Part shown: positions 547-59,810 of the stretch, one piece after another
Layout of the letters: every line of letters begins with the position of its first letter
Position numbering within the stretch: position 1 is the stretch's first letter
NCBI GenBank assembly: GCA_000437895.1
Contig: FR902155.1
Coordinates: 9,495 to 73,494 of the forward strand
DNA length: 64,000 nt
Direction of reading: 5' to 3'
DNA from: Clostridium sp. CAG:914
GTDB lineage: Bacteria; Bacillota_I; Bacilli_A; RF39; UBA660
Made by a program: the position numbers and the translations under genes
The notes under the pieces: model-generated
What the model was told of the DNA's origin: nothing
The model's database searches: none
Seen by the model: only the letters and a program-made list of their open reading frames with translations

Positions 547-1446
547 ATGTTCTTATTTGATGTACTAAAAAAGTGTAAGAAAGAATTAATATTTAAAATA
601 ATTACTTCCATTATAATACAGGGATTATTACTTATAATTCCTGTTTATTGGAGTAATACTATTAACCATGTAACTAATGAAATATATGATAAAGCAATTG
701 ATTTAACAATAATAACACTAACATTAACTTTACTATATTATTTTTGGGCTTATGCTAATCAAAAAACATGGTATACATTTTATAACAAACTTTATTTAGA
801 ATACACAAATAATATAATTAAATACAGTCCTAGCGATGTAACAATTGGACAATATACCAATGTAATAAATAATGATATAGATATAATAGGAACATTTTTA
901 GGTAATTTAGTAACAAGAATAATTCAAATAATAGAATTTCTAGTCATATACTTTTATTTTTTATCTATAGACAAATATATTTTCTTTGTTACCTTAATTA
1001 CATCTATAATAATGATCATATTAATATTCTACTTCGGTAATAAAATAGAAGTAGTAAATAAAACAAGAAAAGATAACCTAGATATAAAAACTATGAATAT
1101 TCATAACATATATGATATATTAAAAAAAAATAATAAATTAGAAGATGATGGTTTTATAAAAAGTACTATAAAATATTTAAAATCAAATGCTAAATTTAAT
1201 GTATTAGCTATGGGTATAATATATATAGTATTATCTTTTATAGAATTATGTAGATATGGTATAATAGTCTATAGTATATATCTAGTATCTATAGGTAATA
1301 TGGAAATAGGAACAATATTATTGATATATTCCTATTATGCTAAAATAATTACTAACTTTGAAGTATTAGGCACAATAAATGCCGAATATCAAAGTGTTAA
1401 AGTATCAGTAAATAGACTAAATAGTCTCCATACAGAAATTGAGTAA
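547..1446 (+). CDS. ABC exporter transmembrane-domain-only protein (ABC_membrane-like, no nucleotide-binding domain; possibly truncated remnant)
   Basis: 299-aa ORF with about six hydrophobic helices and the layout of a type I ABC exporter TMD. It stops where a nucleotide-binding domain would normally follow, and no ATPase gene is adjacent. Confidence 0.4.
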   Translation: MFLFDVLKKCKKELIFKIITSIIIQGLLLIIPVYWSNTINHVTNEIYDKAIDLTIITLTLTLLYYFWAYANQKTWYTFYNKLYLEYTNNIIKYSPSDVTIGQYTNVINNDIDIIGTFLGNLVTRIIQIIEFLVIYFYFLSIDKYIFFVTLITSIIMIILIFYFGNKIEVVNKTRKDNLDIKTMNIHNIYDILKKNNKLEDDGFIKSTIKYLKSNAKFNVLAMGIIYIVLSFIELCRYGIIVYSIYLVSIGNMEIGTILLIYSYYAKIITNFEVLGTINAEYQSVKVSVNRLNSLHTEIE

Positions 1447-1521
1447 ATGCACTAAAAGATATGTCCTAATGGGTATATCTTTTCTAATAATTATGTTATA
1501 ATAATTTCATGTGAGGATTAT

Positions 1522-2337
1522 ATGGGCAACATAGAAAAAGAAATAAAAATTTTAAATATAGACGTATTTAAGATATTAAATAAATTAGAAGAACTTGGTA
1601 TCAAAACAAAAGGTAAGTGCATTCAAGATATTTATACTTATGACTTACCTAAAGTGGAAGTATTGTATACTAAATATATTAATCTATTATTAAAAGATAA
1701 TGATTCAAGAGAAATAACAAAATTAATTACAGAAATAAAACCTTGTTTTTCATCTGAAGACTTAGAAATATTAAAGAGAATATTAGGAAACAAAGATATT
1801 ATAGAATTTATTCATAAAGGTAAAAATCTACATTTATTAAAATCAAAAGAATTAATAAAATTAATGAAAAAAGTAAATACCAAATTTAGTAAATGGATAA
1901 GATTAAGAAAGACAGGAGATAATACTACAATTACCATTAAAAGAATAGTTAATGGAAATGGAGAATATAAAATAGATGCTGTAAGTGAATTGGAAATTCC
2001 CATTCCTAGTCTTGAATATGGTAAAGAATTCTTAGAAGACCTAGGTTATTTCTATAAAAGACATCAATCAAAAATGCGTATTGCTTATGATTATAAAAAT
2101 ACAGAAATAGTCATAGATAAGTGGCCAAAAATATCCCCATATCTTGAAATAGAAGGACCAACTTTAGAAGAAATAATGGAAGTAGTATATCTTTTAGGTT
2201 ATAAAGATAGTGATGTAAAAATAGTCAATACAGACACTGTTTATCTGGAGCAAGGCATAGATATATATAAAGAAGAATATAATATTTTAGATTTTAGTAA
2301 AGAAGAAATAAATATTATTAAAAAATATATGGAATAA
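1522..2337 (+). CDS. CYTH-domain protein (triphosphate tunnel metalloenzyme / class IV adenylate cyclase-like)
   Basis: N-terminal ExExK signature (IEKEIK) and a C-terminal EIEGP segment typical of CYTH domains. RBS GTGAGGA lies upstream of the ATG. Confidence 0.4.
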   Translation: MGNIEKEIKILNIDVFKILNKLEELGIKTKGKCIQDIYTYDLPKVEVLYTKYINLLLKDNDSREITKLITEIKPCFSSEDLEILKRILGNKDIIEFIHKGKNLHLLKSKELIKLMKKVNTKFSKWIRLRKTGDNTTITIKRIVNGNGEYKIDAVSELEIPIPSLEYGKEFLEDLGYFYKRHQSKMRIAYDYKNTEIVIDKWPKISPYLEIEGPTLEEIMEVVYLLGYKDSDVKIVNTDTVYLEQGIDIYKEEYNILDFSKEEINIIKKYME

Positions 2338-2396: not shown

Positions 2397-2939
2397 ATGG
2401 AAAATATAATTAATAATACTGAAGAAAAGATGATGAATGCTATTACAACACTTGAAAATAGATTTACTAATGTAAGAGCAGGAAGAGCAAATCCCAATAT
2501 GTTAGATGGAATAATGGTTGAATATTATGGTGTCCCAACTCCATTAAAACAATTAGCAAATATAACAATACCGGAAGCAAGACAATTATCTATTAAACCA
2601 TTTGATAAAAGTGCTTTAAATGGTATTGAAAAAGCTATATTTGAAGCAAACCTAGGAATTACTCCAAATAATAATGGTGAATCAATATTTTTAGTAGTTC
2701 CTGCTTTAACCGAAGACAGAAGAAAAGAGTTAGTTAAACAAGTACATCAAATGGCAGAAGAAGGTAAAATTGCCCTAAGAAATATTAGACAAGATGCTAA
2801 TAACGCCATTAAAAATCTTAAACTGCCAGAAGATGAAGAAAAAAGAGGAAACGAAAGAGTACAAAACTTAATTAATGAATATAATAAAATTATTGAAGAA
2901 AAATTAAAAGAAAAAGAAAAAGAATTAATGACAATTTAA
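2397..2939 (+). CDS. frr: Ribosome recycling factor
   Basis: The translation from MENIINNTEEKMMNAI...VRAGRANPNMLD...LRNIRQDANN is typical RRF. The ATG at 2397 has an AGAGGA RBS, whereas the ORF-track start at 2349 lacks one. Confidence 0.9.
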   Translation: MENIINNTEEKMMNAITTLENRFTNVRAGRANPNMLDGIMVEYYGVPTPLKQLANITIPEARQLSIKPFDKSALNGIEKAIFEANLGITPNNNGESIFLVVPALTEDRRKELVKQVHQMAEEGKIALRNIRQDANNAIKNLKLPEDEEKRGNERVQNLINEYNKIIEEKLKEKEKELMTI

Positions 2940-2944
2940 TGCAA

Positions 2945-3140
2945 TGATAAGGATTTAGTAGTATACCAAAAGTATTATAGAGAGTAAGTGTTGGTGTAAA
3001 CTTATATATAAGTAAGTATATGAATTCGCCCTTTAGCATTATGGGTAAGCCCGTTATAGCTTTAAGTGTATAACATACGTTATAAAAGAAGGTGGTACCG
3101 CGGATTAATAATTCGTCCTTTTGTTACCATCTTTTTATTT
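2945..3140 (+). promoter_or_regulatory. T-box riboswitch leader (Phe specifier) controlling pheST
   Basis: Conserved T-box core AAGGTGGTACCGCGG at 3089-3103. The leader has an AGAGA/GA-motif stem region, and a UUC (Phe) codon in GAATTCGCC is the candidate specifier. A terminator helix (3089-3097 pairing with 3125-3133) is followed by a U-tract at 3134-3140, just upstream of the pheS RBS. Confidence 0.8.
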
Positions 3141-7454: not shown

Positions 7455-7475
7455 TTGAATCTACTTCTTTTGATT
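7439..7475. terminator. Bidirectional intrinsic terminator between convergent genes
   Basis: Perfect 10-bp stem AAGAAGTAGA (7439-7448) / TCTACTTCTT (7460-7469) with an 11-nt loop. It is flanked by T-rich sequence and spans the stop codons of both convergent ORFs. Confidence 0.6.
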
Positions 7476-9086
7476 ATATGTAATGATTATATCTTCATCA
7501 TTAATCTTTTCAAACAATGCAAAATTATCATCCTCATATAATAATTTATAATTATTATTATTTTTTAATATAATATAAAAAGTACTTAATTCTTTCTCTC
7601 CAGGATATTGTTTATATATAAGTAAATGACTAATATCATAAAATTTAAGTACTTTTTGATAATCTTTAGTTATACTTTTATAGTCATCAAATATATCATA
7701 ATCTAATCCACTAAATTCTTTAGTATATAAGTCTGCTCTAGAATCAATAAATACAGGAATATCGTTCAAAAGTAAATAACTACCAAAATTATATTCATTA
7801 AATAATCTAATATTTTTATAATCTAAATTATCTTTAATATATTCAGTAGCCAAAACAGGATATGTCTTCATATCTATATAATCTGGATTCTTAATACCTT
7901 GAATAAAATATATTCCACCAGCCATCATAATAGTTATCAACACCGTACAAATTACTGATTTTTTTCTAGACATAAAATTAATAATAGTATTATCAATAAC
8001 AAGATTATTATTAATAAAATATAAAGTAAATACTCTTGCAAAACAAAATATACCTACCAAAGCTAATAAAGATATATGTCTAATAGAAGTAACAGCCATA
8101 ATAGTAAGCCCTGTTATCATAAACAAATCTCTAATTTTAACACGCGTAAATAATGATAGAAAATAAACTTCAAAAATCATTATAATAACAAAAGGACTAG
8201 AACTCCAAGTAATCATTTGATGTTCAGCTATGTATTTTTGGCTATTTCCCAACATAGTCTTAATCATATAAGTATATGGTGTTCCTTTAAGTGGAGTAAT
8301 AAGACCAGTAAAAATACTAAGTAACATTATCAAAAATAAATATTTAATATTACTATTAACATCTAAATCAAATCTCTTCTTTAAAAATAAAGTAAACTTA
8401 TTATCTTTCTTTTTATTAACTATTAAAGATAAAATATATTCCGCAAAATAAGGAAGAAATATTATAAAATAAAATGGCCATACTGCTAAATGTATATTAC
8501 AAATAGCTAAAGAAATTAACAAAAGAAATAACAAATATTTTTTCTTACCATTTTTTAAAAACATTTCTATAAAATAAACTTCCAAAGCAAACAAAATAAA
8601 ACTAACTAATTGAGCTCTTGCTGTAACAAAACCTGATAATGATAAAGTAGCAATAAATGTTGAAAAAGCACTTATCGATAAATGATTAGTTATTTTATAT
8701 AAAGCAAAGAATAAGAAATATATAAGTATTAAAAATAATACAATTGAAGATATATATATACCAGTATATCCACCAATTAGGTATATCAAATATATAAATA
8801 CATCATATAACCAATGAGGATAAGTATATGGTAAACTACTATGAAATGAGAAATGATCTTTCATATCAATACCATTTTCAAGAATAAGTTTACCTATCTT
8901 AATCGTATAAAAAGTATCATTTTGTAATGTCTTTTTAACAAGAAATATAGCCAAAATACTTATACATATAACAAAAGCAATAACAAATATTTTTTTATTT
9001 TTCTTCATTGTCAATTGTTCTTTTTCTTGTTTTTCATCCATTTTATTTTTCTTAATCATATTTTTTTTACTTTTTGTCTTAGTCAT
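7461..9086 (-). CDS. Polytopic membrane protein with C-terminal extracytoplasmic domain (putative GT-C-type glycosyltransferase/membrane polymerase-like)
   Basis: 541 aa with a Lys-rich N-terminus, roughly 10-12 predicted TM helices and a soluble C-terminal domain of about 170 aa. The topology resembles GT-C/YfhO-like proteins. The family call is uncertain. Confidence 0.3.
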   Translation of the reverse strand: MTKTKSKKNMIKKNKMDEKQEKEQLTMKKNKKIFVIAFVICISILAIFLVKKTLQNDTFYTIKIGKLILENGIDMKDHFSFHSSLPYTYPHWLYDVFIYLIYLIGGYTGIYISSIVLFLILIYFLFFALYKITNHLSISAFSTFIATLSLSGFVTARAQLVSFILFALEVYFIEMFLKNGKKKYLLFLLLISLAICNIHLAVWPFYFIIFLPYFAEYILSLIVNKKKDNKFTLFLKKRFDLDVNSNIKYLFLIMLLSIFTGLITPLKGTPYTYMIKTMLGNSQKYIAEHQMITWSSSPFVIIMIFEVYFLSLFTRVKIRDLFMITGLTIMAVTSIRHISLLALVGIFCFARVFTLYFINNNLVIDNTIINFMSRKKSVICTVLITIMMAGGIYFIQGIKNPDYIDMKTYPVLATEYIKDNLDYKNIRLFNEYNFGSYLLLNDIPVFIDSRADLYTKEFSGLDYDIFDDYKSITKDYQKVLKFYDISHLLIYKQYPGEKELSTFYIILKNNNNYKLLYEDDNFALFEKINDEDIIITYNQKK

Positions 9087-12075: not shown

Positions 12076-12311
12076 AGTTTTTTAAAAACAAATGAAAGAG
12101 ACGATACTATAGAGAATTAATAGAGAGTGACTAGTTGGTGGAAAGTCATATGAATTTATAGTATAGATCACTCTGGATGTATCTGTTTGATATTTAGAAT
12201 AGATCGGGTAATACCGTTAAATATAAATTAAGTGCACTATAGTTAGTGAATTAAGGTGGTACCACGGTTATAATCGTCCTTATATATAATAAAATATATA
12301 AGGATTTTTTT
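12076..12311 (+). promoter_or_regulatory. T-box riboswitch leader (Ile specifier) controlling ileS
   Basis: AGAGA stem-I region, with AUC in GATCAC as the candidate specifier codon. The T-box core AAGGTGGTACCACGG lies at about 12253-12267. The terminator stem TCCTTATATAT (12277-12287) / ATATATAAGGA (12294-12304) is followed by T7 (12305-12311) and then a GGAGG RBS. Confidence 0.8.
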
Positions 12312-15865: not shown

Positions 15866-16828
15866 ATGAAAAATAAAATAAGTAAAATATTTTTAGCATT
15901 TCTTGTAACAATATCATTTATAATGCCTGTAAACGCTACAATAATAGATGAAAAAGTAGAAAAAGAAACAGAAGAAAAAGGAAGCAATAGTCCATCGCCT
16001 TCACCATATTCTAGATATGTTAAATATATATCTGGACAAGTAGCAGATGGTACTGATGGTGCTAGATTAATGCAAAAAGCATTAAATGCTACGATGAATT
16101 GTGAACTAGATGTTACTGGTAGACTTGATTCGAAAACAAGAGCATGTATTAGAAATTTCCAAAAAAAATATGGAATTATTGATCCAACTCTTGTCGGAGA
16201 AAAAACTATTGGTAATTTAAACTATGTTTATAAATTTAAAAAAGTAATCGTAGATTGTAGTAGTTTAAATATAAGACAATATCCTAATACTAGTTCTAGT
16301 ATATTAGCTAAAGCAAAGAAAGGAACTATTCTTACATATATTAGTGAAACAACTGTAAATGGTGCCAAATGGTACAAAATAACATATAATAATGTTATTG
16401 GTTATGTTCATTCTAATTATGTTGCTGATGATTTTATTGAAGTAGATATAACTTCTCAAGTACTAAGATTATATAAAGATAAAAATTTATTCTTAGATTC
16501 ATTAATAGTAACTGGAAAATATGGAACACATGACACCAATAAAGGTTATTATAAAATTTTCTATACTCAAAGAGATAGATTATTAAATGGAGAAACATTT
16601 GTTAATTACTGGATGAGATTTATCAGCAGTCCTGCTATCGGATTACATGATTCATCTTGGAGAGGAACTAGAGAAACCTTCCAAAAATATGGTGGTATAA
16701 AATATAAAGGTCCTGGTGCTGCTGGTTCATCAAGTTCAGGAAGTCACGGTTGTGTAAATATACCATTAGAAAAAATGGAAATTATTTGGAACAATGCTGG
16801 TATGAATACTATTGTATATGTACATTAA
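15866..16828 (+). CDS. Secreted L,D-transpeptidase with peptidoglycan-binding and SH3b domains (YkuD family)
   Basis: Signal peptide, then a PG_binding_1-like segment (LMQKALNATMNCELDVTGRLDSKTRACIRNFQKKYG), an SH3b-like segment and a YkuD catalytic core with SHGCVN. Confidence 0.85.
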   Translation: MKNKISKIFLAFLVTISFIMPVNATIIDEKVEKETEEKGSNSPSPSPYSRYVKYISGQVADGTDGARLMQKALNATMNCELDVTGRLDSKTRACIRNFQKKYGIIDPTLVGEKTIGNLNYVYKFKKVIVDCSSLNIRQYPNTSSSILAKAKKGTILTYISETTVNGAKWYKITYNNVIGYVHSNYVADDFIEVDITSQVLRLYKDKNLFLDSLIVTGKYGTHDTNKGYYKIFYTQRDRLLNGETFVNYWMRFISSPAIGLHDSSWRGTRETFQKYGGIKYKGPGAAGSSSSGSHGCVNIPLEKMEIIWNNAGMNTIVYVH

Positions 16829-16852
16829 GACTAATTATTTAGTCTTTTTTTA
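16827..16852 (+). terminator. Intrinsic terminator after L,D-transpeptidase gene
   Basis: Stem AGACTA / TAGTCT (16828-16845) followed by T6 (16846-16851). It overlaps the stop codon. Confidence 0.55.
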
Positions 16853-16939
16853 TTAAGAAAAAGCTATAACTGTAAACATATAGTTATAATATTTGACCTT
16901 TATTCCTAGTTATGATAAACTTAAAATGAAGGTGGTAAA

Positions 16940-18094
16940 ATGAAATTGAAAATAGGTGTAATTTTTGGAGGAAATAGTTTAGAACATGAAATATCCATAT
17001 TAACAGCAATACAAGCCATGGATAATTTAGACGAAGAAAAATACGAAATTATTCCAATATATATAGCAAAAGATTACACATGGTATGCTGGAGGACTATT
17101 AAGACATATAGATAGCTTTAATAATTTTAACTTAATAGAAAAGTATGCCAAAAAAGTAAATCTAATAAATAAAAAGGGAAGATTTGTACTACAAACAACA
17201 GGTATAATAAAAAAAGAATATAATGAAATACACTTAGTTATACCAATGGTACATGGTGCAGGAATGGAAGATGGAACTATCCAAGGATATTTACAAACAT
17301 TAGGTATACCTTATGTATCAAATAATATATATTCCTCTGTAATATGTCAAGATAAAATATTTACTAAAGAAATATTAGACTATAATGAAATACCAGTAAT
17401 TAAATATGTATGGTGTTTTGACAATGATTACTATAAAGATAAAAAAGCTATTTTTAATAAAATAGATAAATTAAAATACCCATTAATAATTAAACCAGCT
17501 ACATTAGGTTCTAGTATAGGTATTCAAGTCGTTAATAATCTAGAAGAATTAGATACAATAATCACAGAAGTTTTTAAATATGATAGAAAAATATTAATTG
17601 AAGAAAAAATAGAAGATTTAAAAGAATTAAATATATCTGTCTTAAAAACAAATGATAAAATATTTACTTCTTCAATAGAACAAATAGAAACTAATCTAAC
17701 ATACAGAGAATATAATGATAAATATAAATTAGATAATTATATAAATGGTAATATAATTAGAACTAATCCTGCTAACATAAGTGAAAAATTAGAAAACGAA
17801 ATAATAGATCTAGCTAAAAAAGCAACTAATTTACTTAATAATACCGGTCTATGTACCATAGATTTTCTATATGACAATAATAACAAAAAACTATATATAG
17901 ATGAGATTAATAATATACCAACTTGTTATTCACATCACTTGTGGGAAACTGCCAACATATCATATCGAGAATTGTTAACTATATTAATAAATGATACTTT
18001 AAAAAATATAAATAAAGATACACATATTATTAAGACCATGGATATGGATATACTTAAAGGATTAAAAACAAAAGACATAAAGGAAATGAAATAA
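16940..18094 (+). CDS. ddl: D-alanine--D-alanine ligase (ATP-grasp)
   Basis: N-terminal IGVIFGGNSLEHEISILTA and an ATP-grasp C-terminal region. GAAGGTGG RBS. A possible TTGACC ... 17 nt ... TAAACT promoter lies at about 16893-16921. Confidence 0.8.
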   Translation: MKLKIGVIFGGNSLEHEISILTAIQAMDNLDEEKYEIIPIYIAKDYTWYAGGLLRHIDSFNNFNLIEKYAKKVNLINKKGRFVLQTTGIIKKEYNEIHLVIPMVHGAGMEDGTIQGYLQTLGIPYVSNNIYSSVICQDKIFTKEILDYNEIPVIKYVWCFDNDYYKDKKAIFNKIDKLKYPLIIKPATLGSSIGIQVVNNLEELDTIITEVFKYDRKILIEEKIEDLKELNISVLKTNDKIFTSSIEQIETNLTYREYNDKYKLDNYINGNIIRTNPANISEKLENEIIDLAKKATNLLNNTGLCTIDFLYDNNNKKLYIDEINNIPTCYSHHLWETANISYRELLTILINDTLKNINKDTHIIKTMDMDILKGLKTKDIKEMK

Positions 18095-20359: not shown

Positions 20360-22216
20360 ATGAATAGATTAGAAAATATTGAAAAAATGAAAGAAATAAT
20401 AAAACGTATGAGTAAAGAGGAAAGTTTTTATTATATTAGAGACAATATACCAGAGTACACAATGTATGGTTATATGCTAGAATGCAATAAAAATAACATG
20501 TCAAGTAAAGCACTTAGATTTGGTAATAGAAGATTATCTTATCAAGAATTTGACGATGCTATAGGTAGATATGCCAAAGGTTTTTTGGCTATGGGTATTA
20601 CCAAGGGAAGTAGGGTAGCATTATTATTACCTAATTTACCTGAATCAACTATCATAATATATGCTTTAAATAAAATAGGTGCTATATCTGATAATATTGA
20701 TCCTACTAGTAAGCCCGATAGAATTAGACACTTTTTAGAAACAGAAGGTATTAATGCAATTGTATGCTTTGATGCAGTGTTTGAAAATACAATAAAACCT
20801 AATCTTAATTATATACGTGGAGAATTACATATTGATAAAATTTTAGTTCCTACGATAAAAGATTCTTTAGGGTTAGTTACTGGAGCATTATATAGTTTAA
20901 CAAATAAAGCAAACCAAATTGAAAAAGAATATTTAACAGAATCGGGTAAAATAGAACTCATAAGTATTAGAGATTTTTTGAGCAATTGTAGATACACATT
21001 AAGTTATACCACTCCATATATTAAAGGTGAAATAGCATCCATATGTCATTCATCAGGAACAACAGGTATTCCAAAAATAATACCATCCACAAATGAAAAT
21101 ATTAATTTTATAACTTTTCAACATCAATTATTAGATGATGATTTTAGTAATGTCAAAACTATGCTTCATTTTTTACCAGGATTTGCTAAATTTGGTTTTT
21201 CTGATGTCATGCATATGGGGCATTGTTTAGGCCTTGAATTAATAGAACAACCTATATTTACATTAGAATTGGCTATAAATATGATTCTTAAGTATAAGAT
21301 TAATGCAGTCTTTAGTTTGCCTGCGTTATGGGTAAAATTGGTTGAAGATACTAAGTATTCTAATATTGATTTATCTTTTCTATATGAAGCTGTTTATGGT
21401 GGTGGAGAATTAAGACCATCTATAGTTGCTAAAATTAATAAATTTTTTGTAACGCATGGGGCAAGATGCCTTTTAAGAGTCGGTTATGGTCTTAGTGAAT
21501 TAGATGGTACATGCATTTTAGAAGATCCATTTAGATCATCAAAAGGAAGCTGCGGAACGGATTTAATTGGTGGAATGGGGAAAATTATTAACCCAGAAAC
21601 AGGAAAAGAAGTACCAAATGGAGAACCTGGTGAATTATGGTTTACTAAAGGAAGTTTCCCAGTTACAGAATTTGATGGTAAAACAATACTAAAAACAGGA
21701 AAAATTGATGAAGAAACATATTTACGAACTGGTGACTATATGATTAAGAATAATGATGGGGAATATTTCTTTTATGGAAGAATGAGTAATGATATAAGTC
21801 GCTATGATGGTTATAAAGTAAAGCCAGCAGCCGTAGAACCAATTATTGCATCATCACCTTATGTTAAAGATGTTATGTTAACTGAATACCACGATAATGA
21901 TAGATATGGCGAAATGCCTCTTGCTTTTATTGTTTTAGAAGATAATATAGATGAATCATATGAAAAAATAATTGATGATATTATAAATAGAATTGTTAAT
22001 GCACCAAGAATATCATTCCGTGATATACCTGGCAAACTTAAACTTGTTGACTCCATTCCTATGACACCTGCGATGAAAAAAGACTATAGAAAAGCTAAAG
22101 AAATAGGAGTTACAGGTGAAGAAATAACTATATTGACTAAGGAAACTAATATGGGGCTTGAAGGATATGACATTATATACCCAGAAAAAGTAAAAATAAA
22201 AACTATAAAGAAATAA
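20360..22216 (+). CDS. Adenylate-forming enzyme (acyl-CoA synthetase / fatty-acyl-AMP ligase family), 618 aa
   Basis: AMP-binding core motifs SSGTTGIPK, GYGLSE, LRTGD...YGR and a C-terminal Lys (PAMKKDYRK). Confidence 0.8.
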   Translation: MNRLENIEKMKEIIKRMSKEESFYYIRDNIPEYTMYGYMLECNKNNMSSKALRFGNRRLSYQEFDDAIGRYAKGFLAMGITKGSRVALLLPNLPESTIIIYALNKIGAISDNIDPTSKPDRIRHFLETEGINAIVCFDAVFENTIKPNLNYIRGELHIDKILVPTIKDSLGLVTGALYSLTNKANQIEKEYLTESGKIELISIRDFLSNCRYTLSYTTPYIKGEIASICHSSGTTGIPKIIPSTNENINFITFQHQLLDDDFSNVKTMLHFLPGFAKFGFSDVMHMGHCLGLELIEQPIFTLELAINMILKYKINAVFSLPALWVKLVEDTKYSNIDLSFLYEAVYGGGELRPSIVAKINKFFVTHGARCLLRVGYGLSELDGTCILEDPFRSSKGSCGTDLIGGMGKIINPETGKEVPNGEPGELWFTKGSFPVTEFDGKTILKTGKIDEETYLRTGDYMIKNNDGEYFFYGRMSNDISRYDGYKVKPAAVEPIIASSPYVKDVMLTEYHDNDRYGEMPLAFIVLEDNIDESYEKIIDDIINRIVNAPRISFRDIPGKLKLVDSIPMTPAMKKDYRKAKEIGVTGEEITILTKETNMGLEGYDIIYPEKVKIKTIKK

Positions 22217-22235: not shown

Positions 22236-22306
22236 TAAGTATGTTTTATTATGTAAATAAATGCTTTGCATTTCAACATTAAAATGATATAATAAGTGCA
22301 AAATTG
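22236..22306 (+). repeat. Duplicated copy of the 20255-20325 promoter/leader segment
   Basis: About 62 of 68 nt identical to the sequence upstream of the full-length ligase gene, including the -35 (here TTTGCA) and the TGaTATAAT -10 (22288-22293). Confidence 0.7.
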
Positions 22307-22314
22307 AAAAAATC

Positions 22315-22545
22315 ATAAACAATAGTAAATTATCATTTCGCGATATTCCAAGAAAAATAAAAATTGTAAACGAAATACCTTTAACAAAAGCTTATAAAAA
22401 AGATTATATAACTGCTAAAAATAATGGGCTATCAGGCGATGAAATAACAATAATTACCAATGAAACTAATATCGGATTAGAAAGTTATAAAATAATTTAT
22501 CCAAATAACTTACAAAAAATAAAAAGAAATAGTTTACATTTGTAG
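22315..22545 (+). pseudogene. 3'-terminal remnant (last 77 codons) of a second, paralogous acyl-AMP ligase gene
   Basis: Open frame with no start codon, translating to ...SFRDIPRKIKIVNEIPLTKAYKKDY...IGLESYKIIYP..., homologous to the C-terminus of the 20360-22216 product (ISFRDIPGKLKLVDSIPMTPAMKKDY...MGLEGYDIIYP). It ends in the same 3'-flank motif ACATTTGTAG. Confidence 0.65.
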
Positions 22546-22584
22546 ACTATTTCTTTATTTTATGTTAGAATTATCATAGAGGTC

Positions 22585-24375
22585 GTGATATGTATGGGAT
22601 TTAATTTAGGAATGGCTTGCTCGGGATGTATATATATTGTTCTTGTTACAATGATGTATTTTAATAAAAAAAGAATAAGTACATATGAAAATAAGATATA
22701 TGGACATCTATTATTAGTATCTGTATTACAGATTATAATGGGATTGTTAGGATTTATTACTATATATTATTATCCAAATGCCTTATTAATCAAAAGAATA
22801 ATTAATGTTGCATATTTATTTAGTTTAATATGTTGGGCATTAATATTTACACTTTATGTTATATCTATTTCTTTTAATAATAAACAAAATAAAAAAATAG
22901 ATTTCATAATCTTTGCACTATTTTTAATTGTATTTTTAATTATATCAGCATTACCATTGGGTTATTATAATATAAATAATTTTGTTTATACAAGTGGTTC
23001 TGCTGTTAGCTTTACGTATTTTATGTCTTTTCTATGTATTCTTACAATAATTTTTTGTGTTATTAAAAACAGAAAGAATCTATTATCAAAGAAATATATA
23101 CCAGTAGCATCATTCTTTTTAATAGGAATTGTAGCTTTAATTTTTCAAATAAATAATCCTAAATTATTTTTAATTAGTCCTATGGAAATGATTGTAACAA
23201 TAATTATGTATTTTACAATAGAAAATCCCGATGTAAAAATGTTAACAGAAGTATATCGTGCTAAAGAAATAAGTGATAATGCCAACGAAGAAAAAACAAT
23301 GTTTTTATTTAATGTAACTAAAGAAATTAAAACTGTTACCAATAGTATTAATAGTCATACTGATACAATTCTTGAAGAAACTTCCAATAAAAATATAAAC
23401 GTTGCTGTTGTTAATGATAATGCCATGGAAATAAAAAGTGATATAGCTCAATTTAACACTATGACTAATGAGCTTTTAGATATATCAAGCATTGATGCAG
23501 CAAATATTAAAGTATATAATACTAAATATAATATTAAACTTATTTTAAAACAAATTATAACTACATATAAAGATAAATGTAATAACATTGAATTTAGATC
23601 AAATATAGCAAGTGATCTACCAGAATATATGTATGGAGATAGTATCAATCTTAAAAAAATATTAATTTCTCTTCTAGATAATGCTATAAAATATACAAAT
23701 AATGGATATGTAGAACTTAATGTTTCATGTGTTAAGAAACAAGATATATGTAGATTAATCATTTCAATAGAAGATTCAGGTATTGGAATAAAATCAGAAG
23801 AATTAGACAAAGTATTCAATAAAAATAAAGAAGGATTAAATAGAGATAATCTAAAAAATAACTTATATACAATAAAGAAAATATTAACAATTATGGGGGG
23901 TGCCATCATAACTAATAGTACATATGGTAAGGGTACAACAATGAAGGTTATTTTAGATCAAAAGATAGTTCCAGATGAATTTTCCCCTGAACTAAAATTA
24001 TATAACAATAAAAAGATATTACTTATTGATTCAAACGAAAACACATATAAAATATTCAAAAAAATATTGCATAGTGATAATATTAATATTGATTATGTTG
24101 GAGTAGGGAAGTTAGGACTTGATAAAATTAGAGAAAAAGAAAAATATGATTTAGTATTTATAGAAGATGATTTAAAACCAATAGATGGATATGAAATTAT
24201 TAAAAAGCTAAATAATATTAAAACATTTAATTCTCCAGTTGTATTATTAACCAAAGATAGCAATATTCAATATAGTGATGATTATAAAAAATATGGTTTC
24301 AAAAATTATTTATTGAAACCAATAAAGAAAAAAGACCTATTTGAAATAATAGATACACTAACAAGTGATAAATAA
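22585..24375 (+). CDS. Membrane pseudo-histidine kinase fused to pseudo-receiver domain (degenerate hybrid sensor)
   Basis: An N-terminal domain of about 200 aa with six or more TM helices. A HisKA-like region follows in which the phospho-His position reads TKEIKT (Lys replaces His). The HATPase_c N-box LLDNAIKYT and G-boxes IEDSGIGI/YGKGTT are retained. The C-terminal REC-like domain (LLKPI retained) has Glu at the phospho-Asp position (DLVFIEDDLKPIDG). Paralogous to 50814-52499. Confidence 0.6.
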   Translation: MICMGFNLGMACSGCIYIVLVTMMYFNKKRISTYENKIYGHLLLVSVLQIIMGLLGFITIYYYPNALLIKRIINVAYLFSLICWALIFTLYVISISFNNKQNKKIDFIIFALFLIVFLIISALPLGYYNINNFVYTSGSAVSFTYFMSFLCILTIIFCVIKNRKNLLSKKYIPVASFFLIGIVALIFQINNPKLFLISPMEMIVTIIMYFTIENPDVKMLTEVYRAKEISDNANEEKTMFLFNVTKEIKTVTNSINSHTDTILEETSNKNINVAVVNDNAMEIKSDIAQFNTMTNELLDISSIDAANIKVYNTKYNIKLILKQIITTYKDKCNNIEFRSNIASDLPEYMYGDSINLKKILISLLDNAIKYTNNGYVELNVSCVKKQDICRLIISIEDSGIGIKSEELDKVFNKNKEGLNRDNLKNNLYTIKKILTIMGGAIITNSTYGKGTTMKVILDQKIVPDEFSPELKLYNNKKILLIDSNENTYKIFKKILHSDNINIDYVGVGKLGLDKIREKEKYDLVFIEDDLKPIDGYEIIKKLNNIKTFNSPVVLLTKDSNIQYSDDYKKYGFKNYLLKPIKKKDLFEIIDTLTSDK

Positions 24376-27048: not shown

Positions 27049-27678
27049 CTAAATAAAAATTTTAACAACAAGTTTTAATAATGATGGAAAAACAAATGTT
27101 TCCAATATTGATGATATCAAAGACATAACTGAAGCTATTAATAATACAAAAGAATATTTCTTAATAAAATTAGATAATGTATTAGTTTTATCTTTAAATA
27201 TTTGTTTTAACAATTTTGTACTAAAAAGAATAGAATAAATCATAAGAAGTAATACTGCAAAAATATTTAACAATTGACCAAATATTAAATATAAAAAAGA
27301 TAATATAACACCCTTAGTTTTGTACATTACTATAAAAGAAGTAAGAGAGAATCCCACAACAAAGCCTTTTATATAAGTCATAAATATATTAAAAATAACC
27401 CCTATAATAGTCATACCTAAAATCCAAATAATTATTACATAAGTAAAATTAGTAATAATACTATTTTTAAAAGAAACAGTATTATCTAAATTATAGTTAT
27501 TTATATTTTGAATAAAAACACTAATTTTATTTATTATTACTTGTTTATCATTATTATTTATAATAGTCATAAATATACTACCAGTTATTACTCCTAAAAT
27601 AAGAATACTAATTACAAAGATATTAATTTTTTTATTTGGTACTATTAATCTACTTACATTACTAATTTTTTTTCTCAT
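27049..27678 (-). CDS. spoIIM: Stage II sporulation protein M-like membrane protein (SpoIIM/DUF95)
   Basis: 209 aa with five TM helices. Segment-by-segment similarity to B. subtilis SpoIIM (MRKKISNVSRLI; WILGMTIIGVIFNIFMTYIKGFVVGF). Confidence 0.65.
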   Translation of the reverse strand: MRKKISNVSRLIVPNKKINIFVISILILGVITGSIFMTIINNNDKQVIINKISVFIQNINNYNLDNTVSFKNSIITNFTYVIIIWILGMTIIGVIFNIFMTYIKGFVVGFSLTSFIVMYKTKGVILSFLYLIFGQLLNIFAVLLLMIYSILFSTKLLKQIFKDKTNTLSNFIKKYSFVLLIASVMSLISSILETFVFPSLLKLVVKIFI

Positions 27679-33295: not shown

Positions 33296-34444
33296 TTATT
33301 TACATATTATTTTTTTCGTTGTAATTCCACATATAAAATTAATGAAAATACCAATTATAAATAATAATATTAATTTCATTACATCTAATGAATTTATTTT
33401 AAATGAAAAAAAGTATTTAACAAAAATATTAAAGAAAATATTTATTAGAACAGACAATAAAAAGGTTACAAAAAACAATAATATTAATAATATAATGACA
33501 CGTTTCCTAATTTGAATCATATTATACCCAACTAATCTTGATATTTTTACATTTCTTTTCAAGTCAGAAATTGTATTCTTAATAATAATTATATATATTA
33601 TCAAAAATATTAATGATACAAGGCAAATAGCCATTTTTAACACACTTAATATATCACTTATATTTGATAATTTCATTCCTTCTCCATGATGATAAAAAGT
33701 ATCAATAATAAATTTAGAATTGGAATTATTGTCTATATTTGAAAGTTTATTTTTAATAGAAACAGCTTCATCATATGAATCGAAATTAATTGAATACGTA
33801 TATAATTTACTTTTTTGATACAACTGTTCAAATTTATCATTAGATATTACTAATTCAGGCCACTCAGTCCACTTTGAAGGATAAAAATCCGATATAGAAA
33901 ATTCTATTGTTTCATCTAAAAATTTAAATCCAATCTTTTGATTTCTATACTGTTGAAAATTATAAGATTCTTTACCATCTTCATAAAAAGGAACTCTTAA
34001 AACAATAGAAATTTCATCACTTTTCAAATTCATATTTCTTTGTTCCTGATTTCTAACTAATATATAGTCATCAAAATCACTAGTAAGTAATTCATTCCAT
34101 GTTATTTTATACTCACCATCATACTTTGATATATATGAATTAATTATATTACCATTTGAATCTTGAATAGTGTAACTACCATCAACAATAATATCATATG
34201 ACTTGTCAGGAGTAAAAATAATTGCTTTTTCAATTTTTGTAACGTTTTTTATTTTCTGAAGATAATCATAATAATCATTATTACTAGACACTATTAATAT
34301 GGAATGTTCAGCAATAATGTTTTCCTCAACTTCTCGAAAATAGTTAACAAAATTATATAAAATAAATATTGATGATAATAATATAGAAAGAATAATAATA
34401 TAAATTTTTGTTGTTTTTTTTCTAAAAAAACTTCTTATTAACAT
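33296..34444 (-). CDS. ABC transporter permease, FtsX/MacB-type (second permease)
   Basis: N-terminal TM, a large extracytoplasmic domain of about 220 aa, then three C-terminal TM helices. Confidence 0.6.
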   Translation of the reverse strand: MLIRSFFRKKTTKIYIIILSILLSSIFILYNFVNYFREVEENIIAEHSILIVSSNNDYYDYLQKIKNVTKIEKAIIFTPDKSYDIIVDGSYTIQDSNGNIINSYISKYDGEYKITWNELLTSDFDDYILVRNQEQRNMNLKSDEISIVLRVPFYEDGKESYNFQQYRNQKIGFKFLDETIEFSISDFYPSKWTEWPELVISNDKFEQLYQKSKLYTYSINFDSYDEAVSIKNKLSNIDNNSNSKFIIDTFYHHGEGMKLSNISDILSVLKMAICLVSLIFLIIYIIIIKNTISDLKRNVKISRLVGYNMIQIRKRVIILLILLFFVTFLLSVLINIFFNIFVKYFFSFKINSLDVMKLILLFIIGIFINFICGITTKKIICK

Positions 34445-45962: not shown

Positions 45963-47138
45963 ATGAAAAAATATAATTGGAGTCAAAGCATTTTAGAAAA
46001 TAAATTAAATATGCTAATTGATGAAATTATAAAACGTGGAGGTTCTTTTAATAGAAAAACAAATGAAATAATACTTGAAAATACTAATAAGGAATCAATT
46101 CTTTTAGGATTTGATATATCACTACTAATGAATATGATTGCAACCGTTGATAAATCATTTGAATATCCTATTTTAGCAAGAGACAATTTAAGCTTATTAG
46201 AAATATATAGAGAAAGCCAAGAAGAATTAGAAAATATATCTTTTGCCAAAGAAGATATATTAAATTTTTATAAAGAAAGCACACTATTCTCTAGCGATAT
46301 AACTTATGAAGAACAAAAAACAATGAACTTAAAAACCGATGATATATTAACAATAGTACATGATTTTTATAAAAGTCTAAATCCCTATTTCTTTAAAATA
46401 TTTATGAAAGTATTTAAACAAAGAAAAAATAACCTTAAAACCTTTAATAAAGAAGATACTACTCCATTCATGGGTTGTTCATATATGCTTTCATACCTAA
46501 ACGAAACATATATAGCAATAGCAAGAACACATGACATTGAAGATATTATAACATTTGCTCATGAATATATGCATACAATAAATTATAGTATTAATCCAAG
46601 TGGTGCATATGAAAAAAATAAAAGATATTTTTTTGAAATAGACACCCTTTTTATTGAATTAATAATAACAGATTATTTAAGAAATTTATTTAAAAATAAC
46701 GAAGCCGATAAAGCTAATCTAATAACACATTTAGAGTATTGTAATCAAGTTATATATAGTTCCATAATATATACACTAACAGATTATGAAAAGACCAACA
46801 ATACACAGTTAAACTCTAACAAACAAATGAAAGAATTAATTAAAAATACATTTAGAATAAAAGAAAATATTTTTGAAGAAATTTTTCAAACAAGCGATAT
46901 AGAAATCATTATAAAATATATAATATCTTATATGTTTGCTATAGAACTATACTTGTTATATTTGAATGATAAAGATAAATCTTTATACATTTTAAAAAAA
47001 ATAATCCAAGCAAAAGGATTAAGTAAAGAAGAATATTATAAGTATATTAAAAGTCTAGGATTATATCCTAGTAGTTCAATACATGAATATGAAGAAATAA
47101 TTAAAAGTAGAACACTAAAAAGAACTATTGCTAGATAA
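45963..47138 (+). CDS. Putative zinc metallopeptidase (HExxH motif), family uncertain
   Basis: HEYMH in FAHEYMHTINY. 391 aa. AGAGGTG RBS. Confidence 0.35.
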   Translation: MKKYNWSQSILENKLNMLIDEIIKRGGSFNRKTNEIILENTNKESILLGFDISLLMNMIATVDKSFEYPILARDNLSLLEIYRESQEELENISFAKEDILNFYKESTLFSSDITYEEQKTMNLKTDDILTIVHDFYKSLNPYFFKIFMKVFKQRKNNLKTFNKEDTTPFMGCSYMLSYLNETYIAIARTHDIEDIITFAHEYMHTINYSINPSGAYEKNKRYFFEIDTLFIELIITDYLRNLFKNNEADKANLITHLEYCNQVIYSSIIYTLTDYEKTNNTQLNSNKQMKELIKNTFRIKENIFEEIFQTSDIEIIIKYIISYMFAIELYLLYLNDKDKSLYILKKIIQAKGLSKEEYYKYIKSLGLYPSSSIHEYEEIIKSRTLKRTIAR

Positions 47139-49768: not shown

Positions 49769-50755
49769 TTATTTATCACATTCTCTATTAACAATAAGCC
49801 AATATTTAGAATGATACTCATAGATCATTAAAGATAATTTTCCTACCAATTCAGTATAATCATCATTAGCACTTTTAGTAAAAATAGATATAGTATATGG
49901 ATTCTCATCAAAAACAATACCAACATCATGATAATATTTTCCCCATTTACCATATTTATGAGCAACATTTACGTCTAATTTTTTATTTATACTAGAATAA
50001 AAATTATTAGTCATCGTATCAATTAAAAATTTTCCATACTTAGTATCTTTTATCTCATATAATCTTTTTAAATATATATTCGTATTAGTAACAGTCTGAT
50101 TACCAAATTTCTCACTTGACGTTAATATATTTTTAATTCCTAAAGAATTACCATATCTAACCAAATTATCTCTACCAATATAATTATATAACATAAAATG
50201 AGCATCATTATCACTAACAGATAAAGTACAATATACCAAATCTTTTAACGTTATCTCATTATCTACCTGTTTATTACTAGAACACTTATCTCCCCTGTCA
50301 CTAATATAACTAACCTTAGTCATCAAGTTAACTTTATTATCATACAAATATAAAGCATCTAATAACTTAATCAAACTAGCTCCATAATAAGTTCTATTAT
50401 CATTATACTTAATCACATAAGAAGTATTAATATCTTCATAATATAACGCCATATCATGTTCTTTAATATATTCCTCTATCTCTTTCCTTTCATTATCCAA
50501 TTCATATAAAGGTAAACTATTCAAACAAGCACTATAATCATTATTATTTATATCACTAACTATCCTAGAATTATCTTTATAATCATATTTTATAACAAAA
50601 TCATCATTATTTTTTTTATTGACAAATTTATTATAATATTTCCCCACCTGTATTGATAATAAAAAAAGTACTATTACATATAATACCATAATTATTCTAT
50701 TACTAGTTTTTATATTCATAATTAGTACCTCCATAATTATTTTAAAACACAACAT
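49769..50755 (-). CDS. Membrane-anchored class A beta-lactamase-related serine hydrolase (SxxK, SDN motifs)
   Basis: N-terminal TM, then GASLIK (SxxK) and SVSDND (SDN). The KTG box is atypical (KYG). Confidence 0.4.
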   Translation of the reverse strand: MLCFKIIMEVLIMNIKTSNRIIMVLYVIVLFLLSIQVGKYYNKFVNKKNNDDFVIKYDYKDNSRIVSDINNNDYSACLNSLPLYELDNERKEIEEYIKEHDMALYYEDINTSYVIKYNDNRTYYGASLIKLLDALYLYDNKVNLMTKVSYISDRGDKCSSNKQVDNEITLKDLVYCTLSVSDNDAHFMLYNYIGRDNLVRYGNSLGIKNILTSSEKFGNQTVTNTNIYLKRLYEIKDTKYGKFLIDTMTNNFYSSINKKLDVNVAHKYGKWGKYYHDVGIVFDENPYTISIFTKSANDDYTELVGKLSLMIYEYHSKYWLIVNRECDK

Positions 50756-50813: not shown

Positions 50814-52499
50814 TTATTTAAAATATTTTTCTAACAAAGTAATTAACTTATTTCTACTAATAGGTTTTAATATATAATCATCAAAACCATATTTCTTATA
50901 ACTACCCGTATATTCCACATTATTATCTCTAGTCATCAAAATAAGTATAGAATTAAAACCACTAATTAATTTTAATTTTTTAACAGTCTCTATATAAGAC
51001 ATATAATTAAGTTCATCACTCATTAATATCAAATCATATTTCTCATTATTTCTTATCCTATTTAAACATTCTTTCCCATAACTAACAAAAGTCAAATCAA
51101 CATTATCATCATCTAGACACTTAGATATTAATTTTTGATTAGAAATATTTTCATCTACCACTAAAATACTTATTTTCTTCAAATAATTAGTATATTTTTC
51201 TAAACTATCATCTTTATCAATAACCATCTTTTGATCTAATATAATATTTATTTTATTATTCTCTAATATTATAAATCCACCCATTAAAATTATTCTATTA
51301 TATATATTCTTATATAAATCATTATTTTCTATATCTATAGCACCATTTCCTTCAATAGATATAATCAATCTACATATATCATTTTTATTTACTGAATTAA
51401 TATTTAAAATAATATTATCACTATTAACAAACAATTCTAATCCATCAATCAAACATTCCTTTAAAGTAATTGCATCCCCATACAAATTATCAGGAATATT
51501 ACTATCAATAGATAAATTCAAATTATCCCTATTATAAGATTTTACTAAAGTTTTAATCAATAATTTAACATCATACTTTTTATTATATATTTTTATCTTC
51601 GAGGCCTCTATCTCATTAATATTAAACATTTTATTACACATAGTATTTAACATAGATACTTCATTAATAATCTCACGCATACTATTATCTTTATCTATAT
51701 TTCTATCATCCAATACATCATAAGCTATTTTATTAATATTTTCAGTTGACCTCTTCACCATTTTAGACATATCAAACAAAAACATAGACTTATCATAATT
51801 AGATTTATCTAATTTATCTTTTGACTTTTTCATTTCTAATAACATTTTTACATCAGGATTTTCTATTGTAAAATACATCAAATAATTAACTAAAGTAATC
51901 GTAATAGAAATAACAATTAAATAAGGATTATATTTATATACAAAAAATAAAAATATACAAGACACCACTACAAAAAGCATAGGTATATGTCTCTTATCTA
52001 AATGTTTAATGTTTAAAAGAGGTACAATAACTGATGATAATAAATATAACAAGCAAAGAAAAGCTGTCACCCCACTTGCTGATCCACCTATAGTTAAAGC
52101 ATTATTACCATTAGAAATAATATTCACTTTCAAAATAGCCACTAATAATATTGATATACTATCTATAATAGCTAATATATAAACTATTTTTACATATATC
52201 TTTTTAAGATTTGGAAAAGTAACCAATAACATATATAAAAATAAACAAGTTGCTATTATTATTAATTGAATAAAATCTATCTTATTTAATAAAGAAATTA
52301 TTTTAATAGCAATAGGAGTTAAAGGAAACATAGCCATAATTCTCAAAACAACAACTAAAACACAATCAATAGTACTACATATTAGCATTATAGAATATAT
52401 TCTATTTTCAATTAAATTAATTCTTTTTCTTAAGAAATATGCAAAACACAATAATAAAGAAAAAAGCATTGCATAAAAAGGTAATTGTAATTCACTCAT
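50814..52499 (-). CDS. Membrane pseudo-histidine kinase fused to pseudo-receiver domain (paralog of 22585-24375, more degenerate)
   Basis: Same architecture as the first paralog, with shared segments YFTIENPDVKML, KSMFLF, CRLIISIE and KKYGF...ILKPI. Lys at the phospho-His position (MSKMVKRS), degenerate G-boxes, and Ser at the phospho-Asp position (DLILMSDEL). AAGGTGGA RBS. Confidence 0.6.
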   Translation of the reverse strand: MSELQLPFYAMLFSLLLCFAYFLRKRINLIENRIYSIMLICSTIDCVLVVVLRIMAMFPLTPIAIKIISLLNKIDFIQLIIIATCLFLYMLLVTFPNLKKIYVKIVYILAIIDSISILLVAILKVNIISNGNNALTIGGSASGVTAFLCLLYLLSSVIVPLLNIKHLDKRHIPMLFVVVSCIFLFFVYKYNPYLIVISITITLVNYLMYFTIENPDVKMLLEMKKSKDKLDKSNYDKSMFLFDMSKMVKRSTENINKIAYDVLDDRNIDKDNSMREIINEVSMLNTMCNKMFNINEIEASKIKIYNKKYDVKLLIKTLVKSYNRDNLNLSIDSNIPDNLYGDAITLKECLIDGLELFVNSDNIILNINSVNKNDICRLIISIEGNGAIDIENNDLYKNIYNRIILMGGFIILENNKINIILDQKMVIDKDDSLEKYTNYLKKISILVVDENISNQKLISKCLDDDNVDLTFVSYGKECLNRIRNNEKYDLILMSDELNYMSYIETVKKLKLISGFNSILILMTRDNNVEYTGSYKKYGFDDYILKPISRNKLITLLEKYFK

Positions 52500-59547: not shown

Positions 59548-59810
59548 TAATATTTATTATCTTTTTGCTTAAATACTACTACTTCTTTATCATTATTATT
59601 ATCTATTTTTCTTCCATATTCTGAATCTAACTTACCAAAGGTAAATACTCTTTCATCTCTAATCATACCACCATCTATATATAAAGTATCTCCCACCATT
59701 ATTTCATAATCAATATCCATAATATGAATATTTAAATCATACTTATTATTATATTCATCAATAAGTATATATCTATCATCATTCTTTTCAATTACTAATA
59801 ATTCTTTCAT
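59526..59810 (-). CDS. Hypothetical small protein (94 aa)
   Basis: Open reading frame with a GGAGAAG RBS whose start codon overlaps the upstream gene stop. No recognisable domain. Confidence 0.4.
   Translation of the reverse strand: MKELLVIEKNDDRYILIDEYNNKYDLNIHIMDIDYEIMVGDTLYIDGGMIRDERVFTFGKLDSEYGRKIDNNNDKEVVVFKQKDNKYYMKRYYG

Follow-up and report, generated by a model that had tools for sequence, protein, structure and literature searches.

What does a membrane-bound hybrid histidine kinase do once it can no longer transfer phosphate? The question is raised by a 64,000-nucleotide stretch of contig FR902155.1 of Clostridium sp. CAG:914 (hereafter the window), in which two genes, here called P1 and P2, encode proteins that an original prediction, made from the sequence, described as membrane pseudo-kinases carrying pseudo-receivers. 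The present analysis supports well the view that P1 and P2 are non-phosphotransfer proteins and not canonical hybrid kinases; specifically, their residues predict that they descend from a membrane hybrid histidine kinase and have lost its catalytic activity, and the genes that accompany them and their relatives suggest enzymes of acyl metabolism as the partners with which they may now work.

Two membrane proteins predicted to lack both phospho-acceptors

The two genes, defined by Pfam matches, alignments and AlphaFold2 models, and the domains of their products are laid out in the window as follows:
22594-24375, plus strand: P1, pseudo-hybrid histidine kinase, 593 amino acids
22594-23229, plus strand: seven membrane helices of P1
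23230-23493, plus strand: DHp domain of P1, with Lys243 (codon 23320-23322) in the place of the phospho-His
23521-23967, plus strand: CA domain of P1, N-box and G1 present, G2 gone
24013-24363, plus strand: pseudo-receiver of P1, with Glu524 (24163-24165) in the place of the phospho-Asp
50814-52499, minus strand: P2, a more degenerate paralogue, 561 amino acids
51858-52499, minus strand: membrane domain of P2
51615-51857, minus strand: DHp domain of P2, with Lys246 (51762-51764)
51225-51578, minus strand: minimal CA remnant of P2, N-box and G1 Asp absent, ATP lid deleted
50820-51173, minus strand: pseudo-receiver of P2, with Ser494 (51018-51020) in the place of the phospho-Asp

Both open reading frames (ORFs) are real, as had been claimed, with one adjustment. 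The maximal ORF of P1 spans 22585-24375 (+) from a GTG at 22585, and its true start is likely the ATG at 22594, which yields the 593 residues of the database entries and has AGAGG 13 nt upstream. The claim that the two proteins share an N-terminal multi-helix membrane domain, a kinase-like core and a receiver-like domain is borne out by an end-to-end alignment (35% identity, E 2e-86), in which YFTIENPDVKML closes the last membrane helix of both. The AlphaFold2 models, with predicted local distance difference test (pLDDT) scores of 88.4 for P1 and 84.7 for P2, both contain seven membrane helices and a short external β-hairpin, and no extracytoplasmic domain is seen in the P1 model. In both models, the seventh transmembrane helix (TM7) continues into DHp helix 1 past a break at an ENPD motif, and the CA domain, minimal in P2, and a receiver fold follow.

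Profile searches, proposed with the original prediction as a check on the domains, gave a divided answer. Response_reg matches both proteins at 54.5 bits (P1) and 49.4 bits (P2), above the gathering score of 30.2, whereas HATPase_c matches P1 only and HisKA matches neither. Response_reg is the only Pfam match in P2; P1 has in addition a weak match to 7TMR-DISM_7TM (22.8 bits, below the gathering score of 29) that P2 lacks. Receptors of the 7TMR-DISM class, of which RetS is one, combine this membrane domain with an extracytoplasmic DISMED domain. The kinase-like core of P1 is recognized by the NCBIfam hybrid-kinase models for TorS, ArcB, BarA and LuxQ over residues 225-591, and residues 226-455 align with kinases of the PDB in phmmer (E 3e-19). 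Foldseek searches with the full-length P1 model matched HK853, WalK, RetS and DivL, with ShkA as the top match; these were generic kinase cores only, and no relative of the membrane domain was found.

It is the alignments that establish the substituted positions. In the phmmer comparison with PDB kinases, FLFNVTKEIKT of P1 stands opposite FLANMSHEIRTP, which places K243 on the phospho-His, and K246 of P2 shares a column with it in the family alignment. In the receivers, E524 of P1 lies opposite the Asp of ArlR YDLIILD and S494 of P2 opposite that of SLN1 FDLIFMD, so that the five-residue receiver site reads D-S / E / T / K in P1 and D-E / S / T / K in P2. The predicted replacement of the phospho-His by Lys in both proteins, and of the phospho-Asp by Glu in P1 and Ser in P2, thus holds. 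The ATP-binding motifs were described less accurately: the N-box Asn, the G1 motif DxGxG and the F-box Phe are indeed present in P1, whereas its G2 box, thought to be retained, is lost and reads RDNLKNNLYT where canonical kinases have GTGLGLAI. P2 was rightly called degenerate, with no N-box, G1 Asp, F box or G2 and the whole ATP-lid segment missing.

Two other explanations for these substitutions were rejected. Sequencing error is excluded because the residues are fixed, K and E being found in 120/120 near-identical variants of P1 and K and S in 16/16 members read of the P2 cluster. A phospho-accepting His elsewhere in the DHp domain was also discarded: no conserved alternative His exists among 110 His-less members of the family described below, 58 of which have zero His in this domain, as does P2. 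A displaced His and Asp would have undermined the original prediction; the profile and structure comparisons put non-phosphorylatable residues at both acceptor positions and revealed no alternative acceptor. Judged by the alignments, neither P1 nor P2 carries a phospho-acceptor. As worded by Collins & Childers, in the form in which PMC12632262 cites them, a pseudo-histidine kinase is a kinase fold without one or more kinase functions. P1 and P2 fit this description, since the DHp and CA fold is present, the catalytic residues are absent and the genes are under selection. They would likewise be pseudo-receivers, or aspartate-less receivers, as defined in PMC12632262, with a PF00072 match and Glu or Ser for Asp. 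HisKA domains without the His made up ~0.9% in one survey (PMC12632262).

A family that divides at the H-box

A first homologue search returned only variants at least 98% identical, and the diversity of the family was therefore read from two further sets: 150 full-length representatives of 50%-identity clusters, each with E ≤ 1e-85 in an exhaustive profile search, and a scan of species-representative genomes that gave 263 relatives, for 80 of which the loci were fetched and on which all locus counts rest. All 80 loci come from uncultured, low-GC gut metagenome-assembled genomes (MAGs), labelled Bacilli, Tenericutes, Mollicutes, Erysipelotrichaceae, 'Clostridium sp.' or 'Mycoplasma sp. CAG:877'. 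The H-box column reads H 58, Q 18, N 10, K 1 and S 1 in 88 ORFs from these loci, and H 65, Q 57, N 12 and K 4 in the 150 representatives, with other residues in the rest. The His is absent from 85 of the latter, and the substitutions first noticed at the His and Asp positions in P1 and P2 do define a family, in which about half of the 50%-identity clusters lack the His.

The loss of the His is accompanied by other losses. Members that bear it read SHEIRTPLN at the H-box, GTGLGLAITK at G2 and MMPKM after the receiver Asp. Among His-less members, G2 is gone in all except two; these two are nested within the His-bearing group and seem to have changed recently. All five receiver active-site residues are intact in 121/122 canonical members versus 22/110 His-less ones, the receiver Asp itself being kept in 76 of the 110. 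The N-box Asn persists in 85% of His-less members and the G1 residues in 90-96%, and for this reason many of them, P1 included, may still bind nucleotide.

In a neighbour-joining tree of 233 sequences, from which the two diagnostic columns were left out, one split sorts 230 of the 233 into His-bearing and His-less groups. This single split therefore suggests that the His was lost essentially once and that the His-less branch then diversified. P1 and P2 belong to separate sub-branches, and comparison of P2 with every relative tested gave identities of only 33-37%. A recent tandem duplication was rejected as their origin on these grounds, and the description of the pair as duplicated and diverged is correct in the sense that they are old, distant paralogues.

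The canonical relatives in gut Bacilli, kinases of 7TM-HisKA-HATPase-REC type (loci L050, L045 and L023), have the same membrane domain, MYFTIENPD junction, domain order and upstream enzyme as P1 and P2. What sets the canonical proteins apart from P1 and P2, which share none of these features, is SHEIRTPLN, GTGLGL, the receiver Asp with MMPKM and an Hpt-REC, Hpt or REC gene downstream. The literature searched contained no paper on these canonical kinases, which as a family seem to be uncharacterized as well.

Dead kinases might still remove phosphate: a residual phosphatase or phosphate-sink activity on a response regulator would not need the His, which is not essential for HisKA phosphatase activity (PMC12632262), and P1 does keep a phosphatase-type E-x-x-T beside the former His (K-E-I-K-T). 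The motif is entirely absent from P2, however, where the H-box reads K-M-V-K-R, the H-box column counts give Thr or Asn at position H+4 in just 26/110 His-less members, and no regulator that could serve as a substrate is encoded nearby. We consider this activity highly improbable.

Loss of the relay partner and retention of an upstream acyl enzyme

Downstream of the canonical kinases, within a few nucleotides, Pfam identifies the next component of a relay in one of three arrangements: a 259-aa protein with Hpt and REC domains; an Hpt domain fused to the C terminus of the kinase, followed by a separate gene for a 123-aa stand-alone receiver; or a 119-aa Hpt protein. Examples of such partner genes are L050:7826-8605, L045:10952-11734, L027:6935-7306 and L016:7766-8125. 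No DNA-binding or enzymatic output domain was found by Pfam in these Hpt-REC, receiver or Hpt proteins. A partner-like small ORF is present in 41/52 canonical loci versus 1/28 His-less loci, and the 64-kb window contains neither an Hpt-REC partner-like ORF nor any other two-component protein. With both acceptor sites non-phosphorylatable, no alternative acceptor found and the Hpt-REC partner lost, the earlier view of P1 and P2 as non-phosphotransfer proteins is strengthened; for the 'scaffold' role that was proposed with it, we can only infer that it applies.

These data bear on a further possibility, namely that P1 and P2 are modulators in the manner of RetS or DivL, which would bind a canonical kinase, Hpt protein or regulator encoded elsewhere, through DHp heterodimers or receiver docking, and so tune a real phosphorelay. 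RetS and DivL are indeed among the closest sequence and structural matches of P1, the weak 7TMR-DISM_7TM match recalls RetS, the DHp fold has confident helices in both AlphaFold2 models, the receiver Asp of most His-less members could in principle accept phosphate, and the window covers 64 kb of the genome. Against such a role, P1 and P2 themselves lack the receiver Asp, the Hpt-REC partner is all but missing from the His-less loci, and mean pairwise identity in DHp helix 1, the surface on which regulators dock, falls from 0.77 in canonical to 0.34 in His-less members. That canonical and His-less copies occur together in no assembly, among the 80 of 263 relatives with fetched loci, argues weakly in the same direction. 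We regard a modulator role as unlikely, though worth bearing in mind.

What has been retained is the gene upstream. Immediately upstream of 85 of 87 family genes not at a contig edge, and on the same strand, lies a gene for an AMP-binding enzyme or a PlsC-type acyltransferase, the median distance between the two genes being 46-66 nt; canonical and His-less groups keep the same neighbour, and P1 and P2 follow suit. This near-invariant pairing, which the original prediction overlooked, is the strongest functional clue that we have. A cluster in the order AMP-binding gene, kinase, acyltransferase, kinase occurs in canonical loci L023, L026, L045 and L078 and, with pseudo-kinases, in L008. In the window, the pairing is split over two places, 20360-22216 followed by P1, and 53507-54436 and 52573-53502 followed by P2:
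20360-22216, plus strand: AMP-binding enzyme (ANL superfamily, acyl-CoA-ligase-like), 618 amino acids, upstream of P1 (Pfam)
22299-22545, plus strand: 3′ remnant of a second, tandem AMP-binding gene (comparison with 98%-identical strains)
22523-22556, plus strand: terminator-like hairpin with a 15-pair stem and a T-rich tail (consensus scan only)
52573-53502, minus strand: PlsC-type acyltransferase, 309 amino acids, directly upstream of P2 with a 73-nt gap, HX4D intact
53507-54436, minus strand: second PlsC-type acyltransferase, 309 amino acids, 4 nt upstream of the first, HX4D intact

The adenylation P-loop of the 618-aa enzyme, SSGTTGIPK, is intact. No hydrophobic segment is predicted in this enzyme or in the acyltransferases of the window, and searches with the latter gave no match in the PDB and no above-cut-off name in NCBIfam. 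Promoter scans were uninformative, their counts being equal to those of shuffled sequence in this 25% GC DNA, and the operon structure was consequently judged from gene spacing alone. In the neighbourhood of P1 and P2, scans for Rfam families and tRNAs were negative.

Some canonical loci have a further gene between the AMP-binding gene and the kinase, encoding a protein in which an NT5C-like (HAD phosphatase-like) domain is fused to a PlsC-type acyltransferase domain (L014:4611-5963, L018:4560-5912 and L059:4559-5893), assigned by Pfam in L014 and by BLAST similarity and size in L018 and L059. In the window, the gene run that includes P2 continues directly downstream with a gene (49769-50755, minus strand) for a Beta-lactamase2 (class A-like) protein, which has a single hydrophobic segment at its N terminus; this arrangement is kept in strain L086 and not in other genera.

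Selection on the His-less proteins

The His-less family is maintained by purifying selection. Between species, the ratio of nonsynonymous to synonymous substitution rates (dN/dS) is 0.087-0.16 for His-less orthologue pairs and 0.073-0.14 for canonical pairs; the His-less proteins match their canonical relatives in this respect and are therefore functional. Within the species, P1 has a dN/dS of 0.26-0.28 against 98%-identical strains, from few substitutions. For P2, comparison with an 88%-identical allele gives 0.06-0.08 in the DHp and REC domains. The notion that the two genes are decaying relics, or pseudogenes in the making, could appeal to the progressive loss of catalytic motifs, to the internal CA deletion in P2 and to the dN/dS of recent within-genome paralogue pairs (0.38-0.42). 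It must contend, however, with full-length ORFs in 85 His-less 50%-identity clusters, comprising dozens of diverged lineages, with between-species dN/dS values of ~0.09-0.16, with substituted residues fixed across the 120 and 16 variants, and with two confidently folded models. The selection data within and between species effectively refute the pseudogene reading, which we find scarcely credible.

The paralogue pairs with raised dN/dS are tandem His-less genes at L010, L035 and L055, recent duplicates within their genomes. At L010 and L055, the adjoining AMP-binding genes have diverged further than the pseudo-kinases (39% versus 68% identity at L010), and enzyme and sensor were therefore not simply duplicated as one unit.

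Conservation is distributed unevenly along the proteins. Mean pairwise identity is much the same in His-less and canonical members for the membrane domain (0.26 and 0.25) and for the linker from TM7 to ENPD (0.44 and 0.48), while in the receiver it drops from 0.53 in canonical to 0.32 in His-less members, as it does in DHp helix 1. Such a pattern might mean that it is the membrane domain that does the work, for instance by transporting fatty acids or lysolipids or as a flippase or receptor, and that the cytoplasmic domains are a structural or dimerizing appendage. Three observations speak for this possibility: decay is seen in the cytoplasmic motifs, whereas the membrane domain and the invariant MYFTIENPD junction are conserved to the same degree in the two groups; the partner enzymes are soluble; and divergent alleles of TM2-TM5 of P2 exist among strains. 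The low dN/dS of P2 in DHp and REC shows strong purifying selection on the supposed appendage, though, and the G1 motif and N-box Asn are kept in most His-less members; moreover, neither Pfam nor Foldseek found any similarity to a transporter family. A free-standing membrane function appears to us decidedly unlikely, somewhat more so than a modulator role.

The variation in the P2 membrane domain is itself of note. TM2-TM5 (window 52031-52340, residues ~54-157) is dimorphic among strains: compared with L086:3001-4683, the membrane domain of P2 has dS 0.33 and dN 0.19, while the remaining gene and its flanks have dS 0.005-0.08, a contrast suggesting that recombination brought in a divergent version of the sensor segment.

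A candidate role in the acylation of membrane lipids

Collectively, the loss of phosphotransfer, the selection on the remaining fold and the constancy of the upstream gene lead us to a model in which P1 and P2 are pseudo-sensors derived from a phosphorelay that act by protein contacts, serving the soluble acyl enzymes encoded next to them as membrane-embedded subunits for sensing or anchoring. We hold this model with about equal parts of belief and doubt; the mechanism would be one of contact, and the adjacent enzymes are suggested as likeliest partners by gene neighbourhood. The ancestor, which seems to survive in related gut Bacilli, would have had a seven-helix intramembrane sensor and a working HisKA, ATPase and receiver core, would have fed an Hpt-REC partner, and would have been co-encoded with an acyl-adenylating enzyme, a PlsC-type acyltransferase or both. 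In the lineage of the window organism, the phospho-His, the G2 box of the ATP lid and the Hpt-REC partner would then have been lost, together in most cases with the receiver active site, while purifying selection presumably preserved the membrane domain and the overall fold and kept the genes linked to those of the enzymes. In the proteins of today, the seven-helix domain may read or provide membrane context and so couple the status of the membrane or of fatty acids to the acylation of membrane lipids. Nucleotide may still be bound by P1, where it would act as a conformational ligand; P2, as far as its residues predict, cannot bind it.

A number of points weigh against this model. The adjacency of the enzyme genes may be mere co-transcription inherited from the ancestor, and a canonical kinase or relay partner may be encoded elsewhere in the genome, outside the window. 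The window organism is putatively placed in RF39 or a related order, on the basis of MAG labels and the GTDB taxonomy. The identity of the enzyme upstream of P1 is also loosely drawn: the best NCBIfam models for the 618-aa protein are those for long-chain-fatty-acid--CoA ligases, all below cut-off, and its closest PDB relatives are generic members of the ANL superfamily, including 4-coumarate ligases and luciferases. Furthermore, this is not the gene that normally abuts P1. In 98%-identical strains, a second AMP-binding gene, intact, encoding 628 residues and 63% identical to the first, ends 48 nt before P1; comparison with these strains (L081:1025-2706) reveals that 1.68 kb are missing from the window, with a 4-bp overlap at the junction and ~245 nt of the 3′ part left. 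Because it has been deleted there, the AMP-binding enzyme that normally abuts P1 is dispensable in the window strain. Finally, the terminator-like hairpin overlaps the stop codon of the remnant and lies between the enzyme gene and P1.

The model can be carried further, to a form that we put forward tentatively and think more probably wrong than right. RF39 gut Bacilli have been reported to be without any fatty-acid synthesis and probably use exogenous fatty acids (Nayfach et al. 2019, PMC6784871), and a known scavenging route in Chlamydia employs a pair consisting of a split acyl-ACP synthetase and a lysophospholipid acyltransferase (PMC5693948). In fatty-acid-auxotrophic gut Bacilli, a whole phosphorelay stripped of its phosphochemistry might serve as a membrane regulatory or anchoring subunit for acyl-adenylating and PlsC-type enzymes, the seven-helix domain sensing membrane lipid or free fatty acid and the dead DHp, CA and REC domains relaying conformation. 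If this were true, canonical relays that end in an output-less Hpt-REC protein would also be post-translational regulators of acyl enzymes and not of transcription.

Relation to known pseudo-kinases

Pseudo-histidine kinases have been studied in a handful of cases only (DivL, PsmA and RetS-like proteins). RetS of Pseudomonas aeruginosa is, like P1 and P2, a membrane hybrid kinase with a 7TM-type domain that signals without phosphotransfer of its own; unlike them, it has retained the His, carries two receivers and a sensor domain in the periplasm, and targets GacS, a canonical partner kinase of a kind not seen for P1 and P2 in the window. The plant subfamily-2 ethylene receptors ETR2 and EIN4 combine a membrane domain, a degenerate histidine-kinase domain and a receiver, and signal via protein contacts; they are eukaryotic, with a membrane domain that binds copper and ethylene, and have no specific relationship to P1 and P2. 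In Caulobacter DivL (PMC4211667; PDB 4q20), the His is replaced by Tyr and the kinase fold is reused to sense a partner protein, but this alphaproteobacterial protein contains PAS domains, lacks a receiver and is a DivK~P-binding regulator of CckA. PsmA, a hybrid histidine pseudokinase of Streptomyces (PMC12963549), is similar in that variable residues replace the H-box His and the ATP motifs are degenerate; it lacks autokinase activity and requires neither the phosphorelay nor the phosphatase motif for its function (PMC12963549). It differs in being a cytoplasmic protein of an unrelated lineage, with PAS domains and a long disordered region in place of a membrane domain, a receiver Asp that is kept, an association with DivIVA at hyphal tips, and no enzyme-gene pairing. 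ShkA and CikA (PMC12632262) contain receiver folds that lack active-site residues and exert intramolecular or ligand-dependent regulation, but they are still active kinases, whereas in P1 and P2 both kinase and receiver are predicted to be dead.

The kind of protein is thus not new, pseudo-histidine kinases and pseudo-receivers being already established by DivL, PsmA, the framework of Collins & Childers and the Bourret review. The family of P1 and P2, as far as the literature searched shows, is undescribed and unusually large, no description of it, nor of a kinase paired with an acyl enzyme, having been found there. Distinctive are the death of both kinase and receiver, the active ancestral state in sister lineages, and the pairing with acyl enzymes almost always. 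The family offers a natural before-and-after series for the role of the kinase fold once phosphotransfer is gone, and its near-invariant pairing provides a concrete and testable partner hypothesis, in uncultured organisms that occur commonly in the human gut and that, in the case of RF39-type Bacilli, reportedly depend on exogenous fatty acids. NCBI labels both P1 (CDE95744.1) and P2 (CDE95774.1) generically as kinase or regulator, and such sensor kinase and response regulator labels in public databases overstate the two-component capacity of these genomes.

Other features of the window

The window has a GC content of 25%. Five of its ORFs, of 271-541 aa, had no Pfam match at an E-value cut-off of 1e-5 (1e-3 for the second): 7461-9086 (-), 45963-47138 (+), 59810-61258 (-), 33296-34444 (-) and 547-2337 (+). 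Two T-box leaders score above the Rfam gathering score (2935-3123 and 12083-12284), one upstream of pheS/pheT and the other of ileS. Genes at 15866-18094 and 27049-27678 encode a YkuD-type L,D-transpeptidase with an SH3 domain, a D-Ala-D-Ala ligase and a SpoIIM homologue, from which it follows that the organism makes peptidoglycan, although related MAGs are labelled 'Tenericutes' or 'Mycoplasma'.

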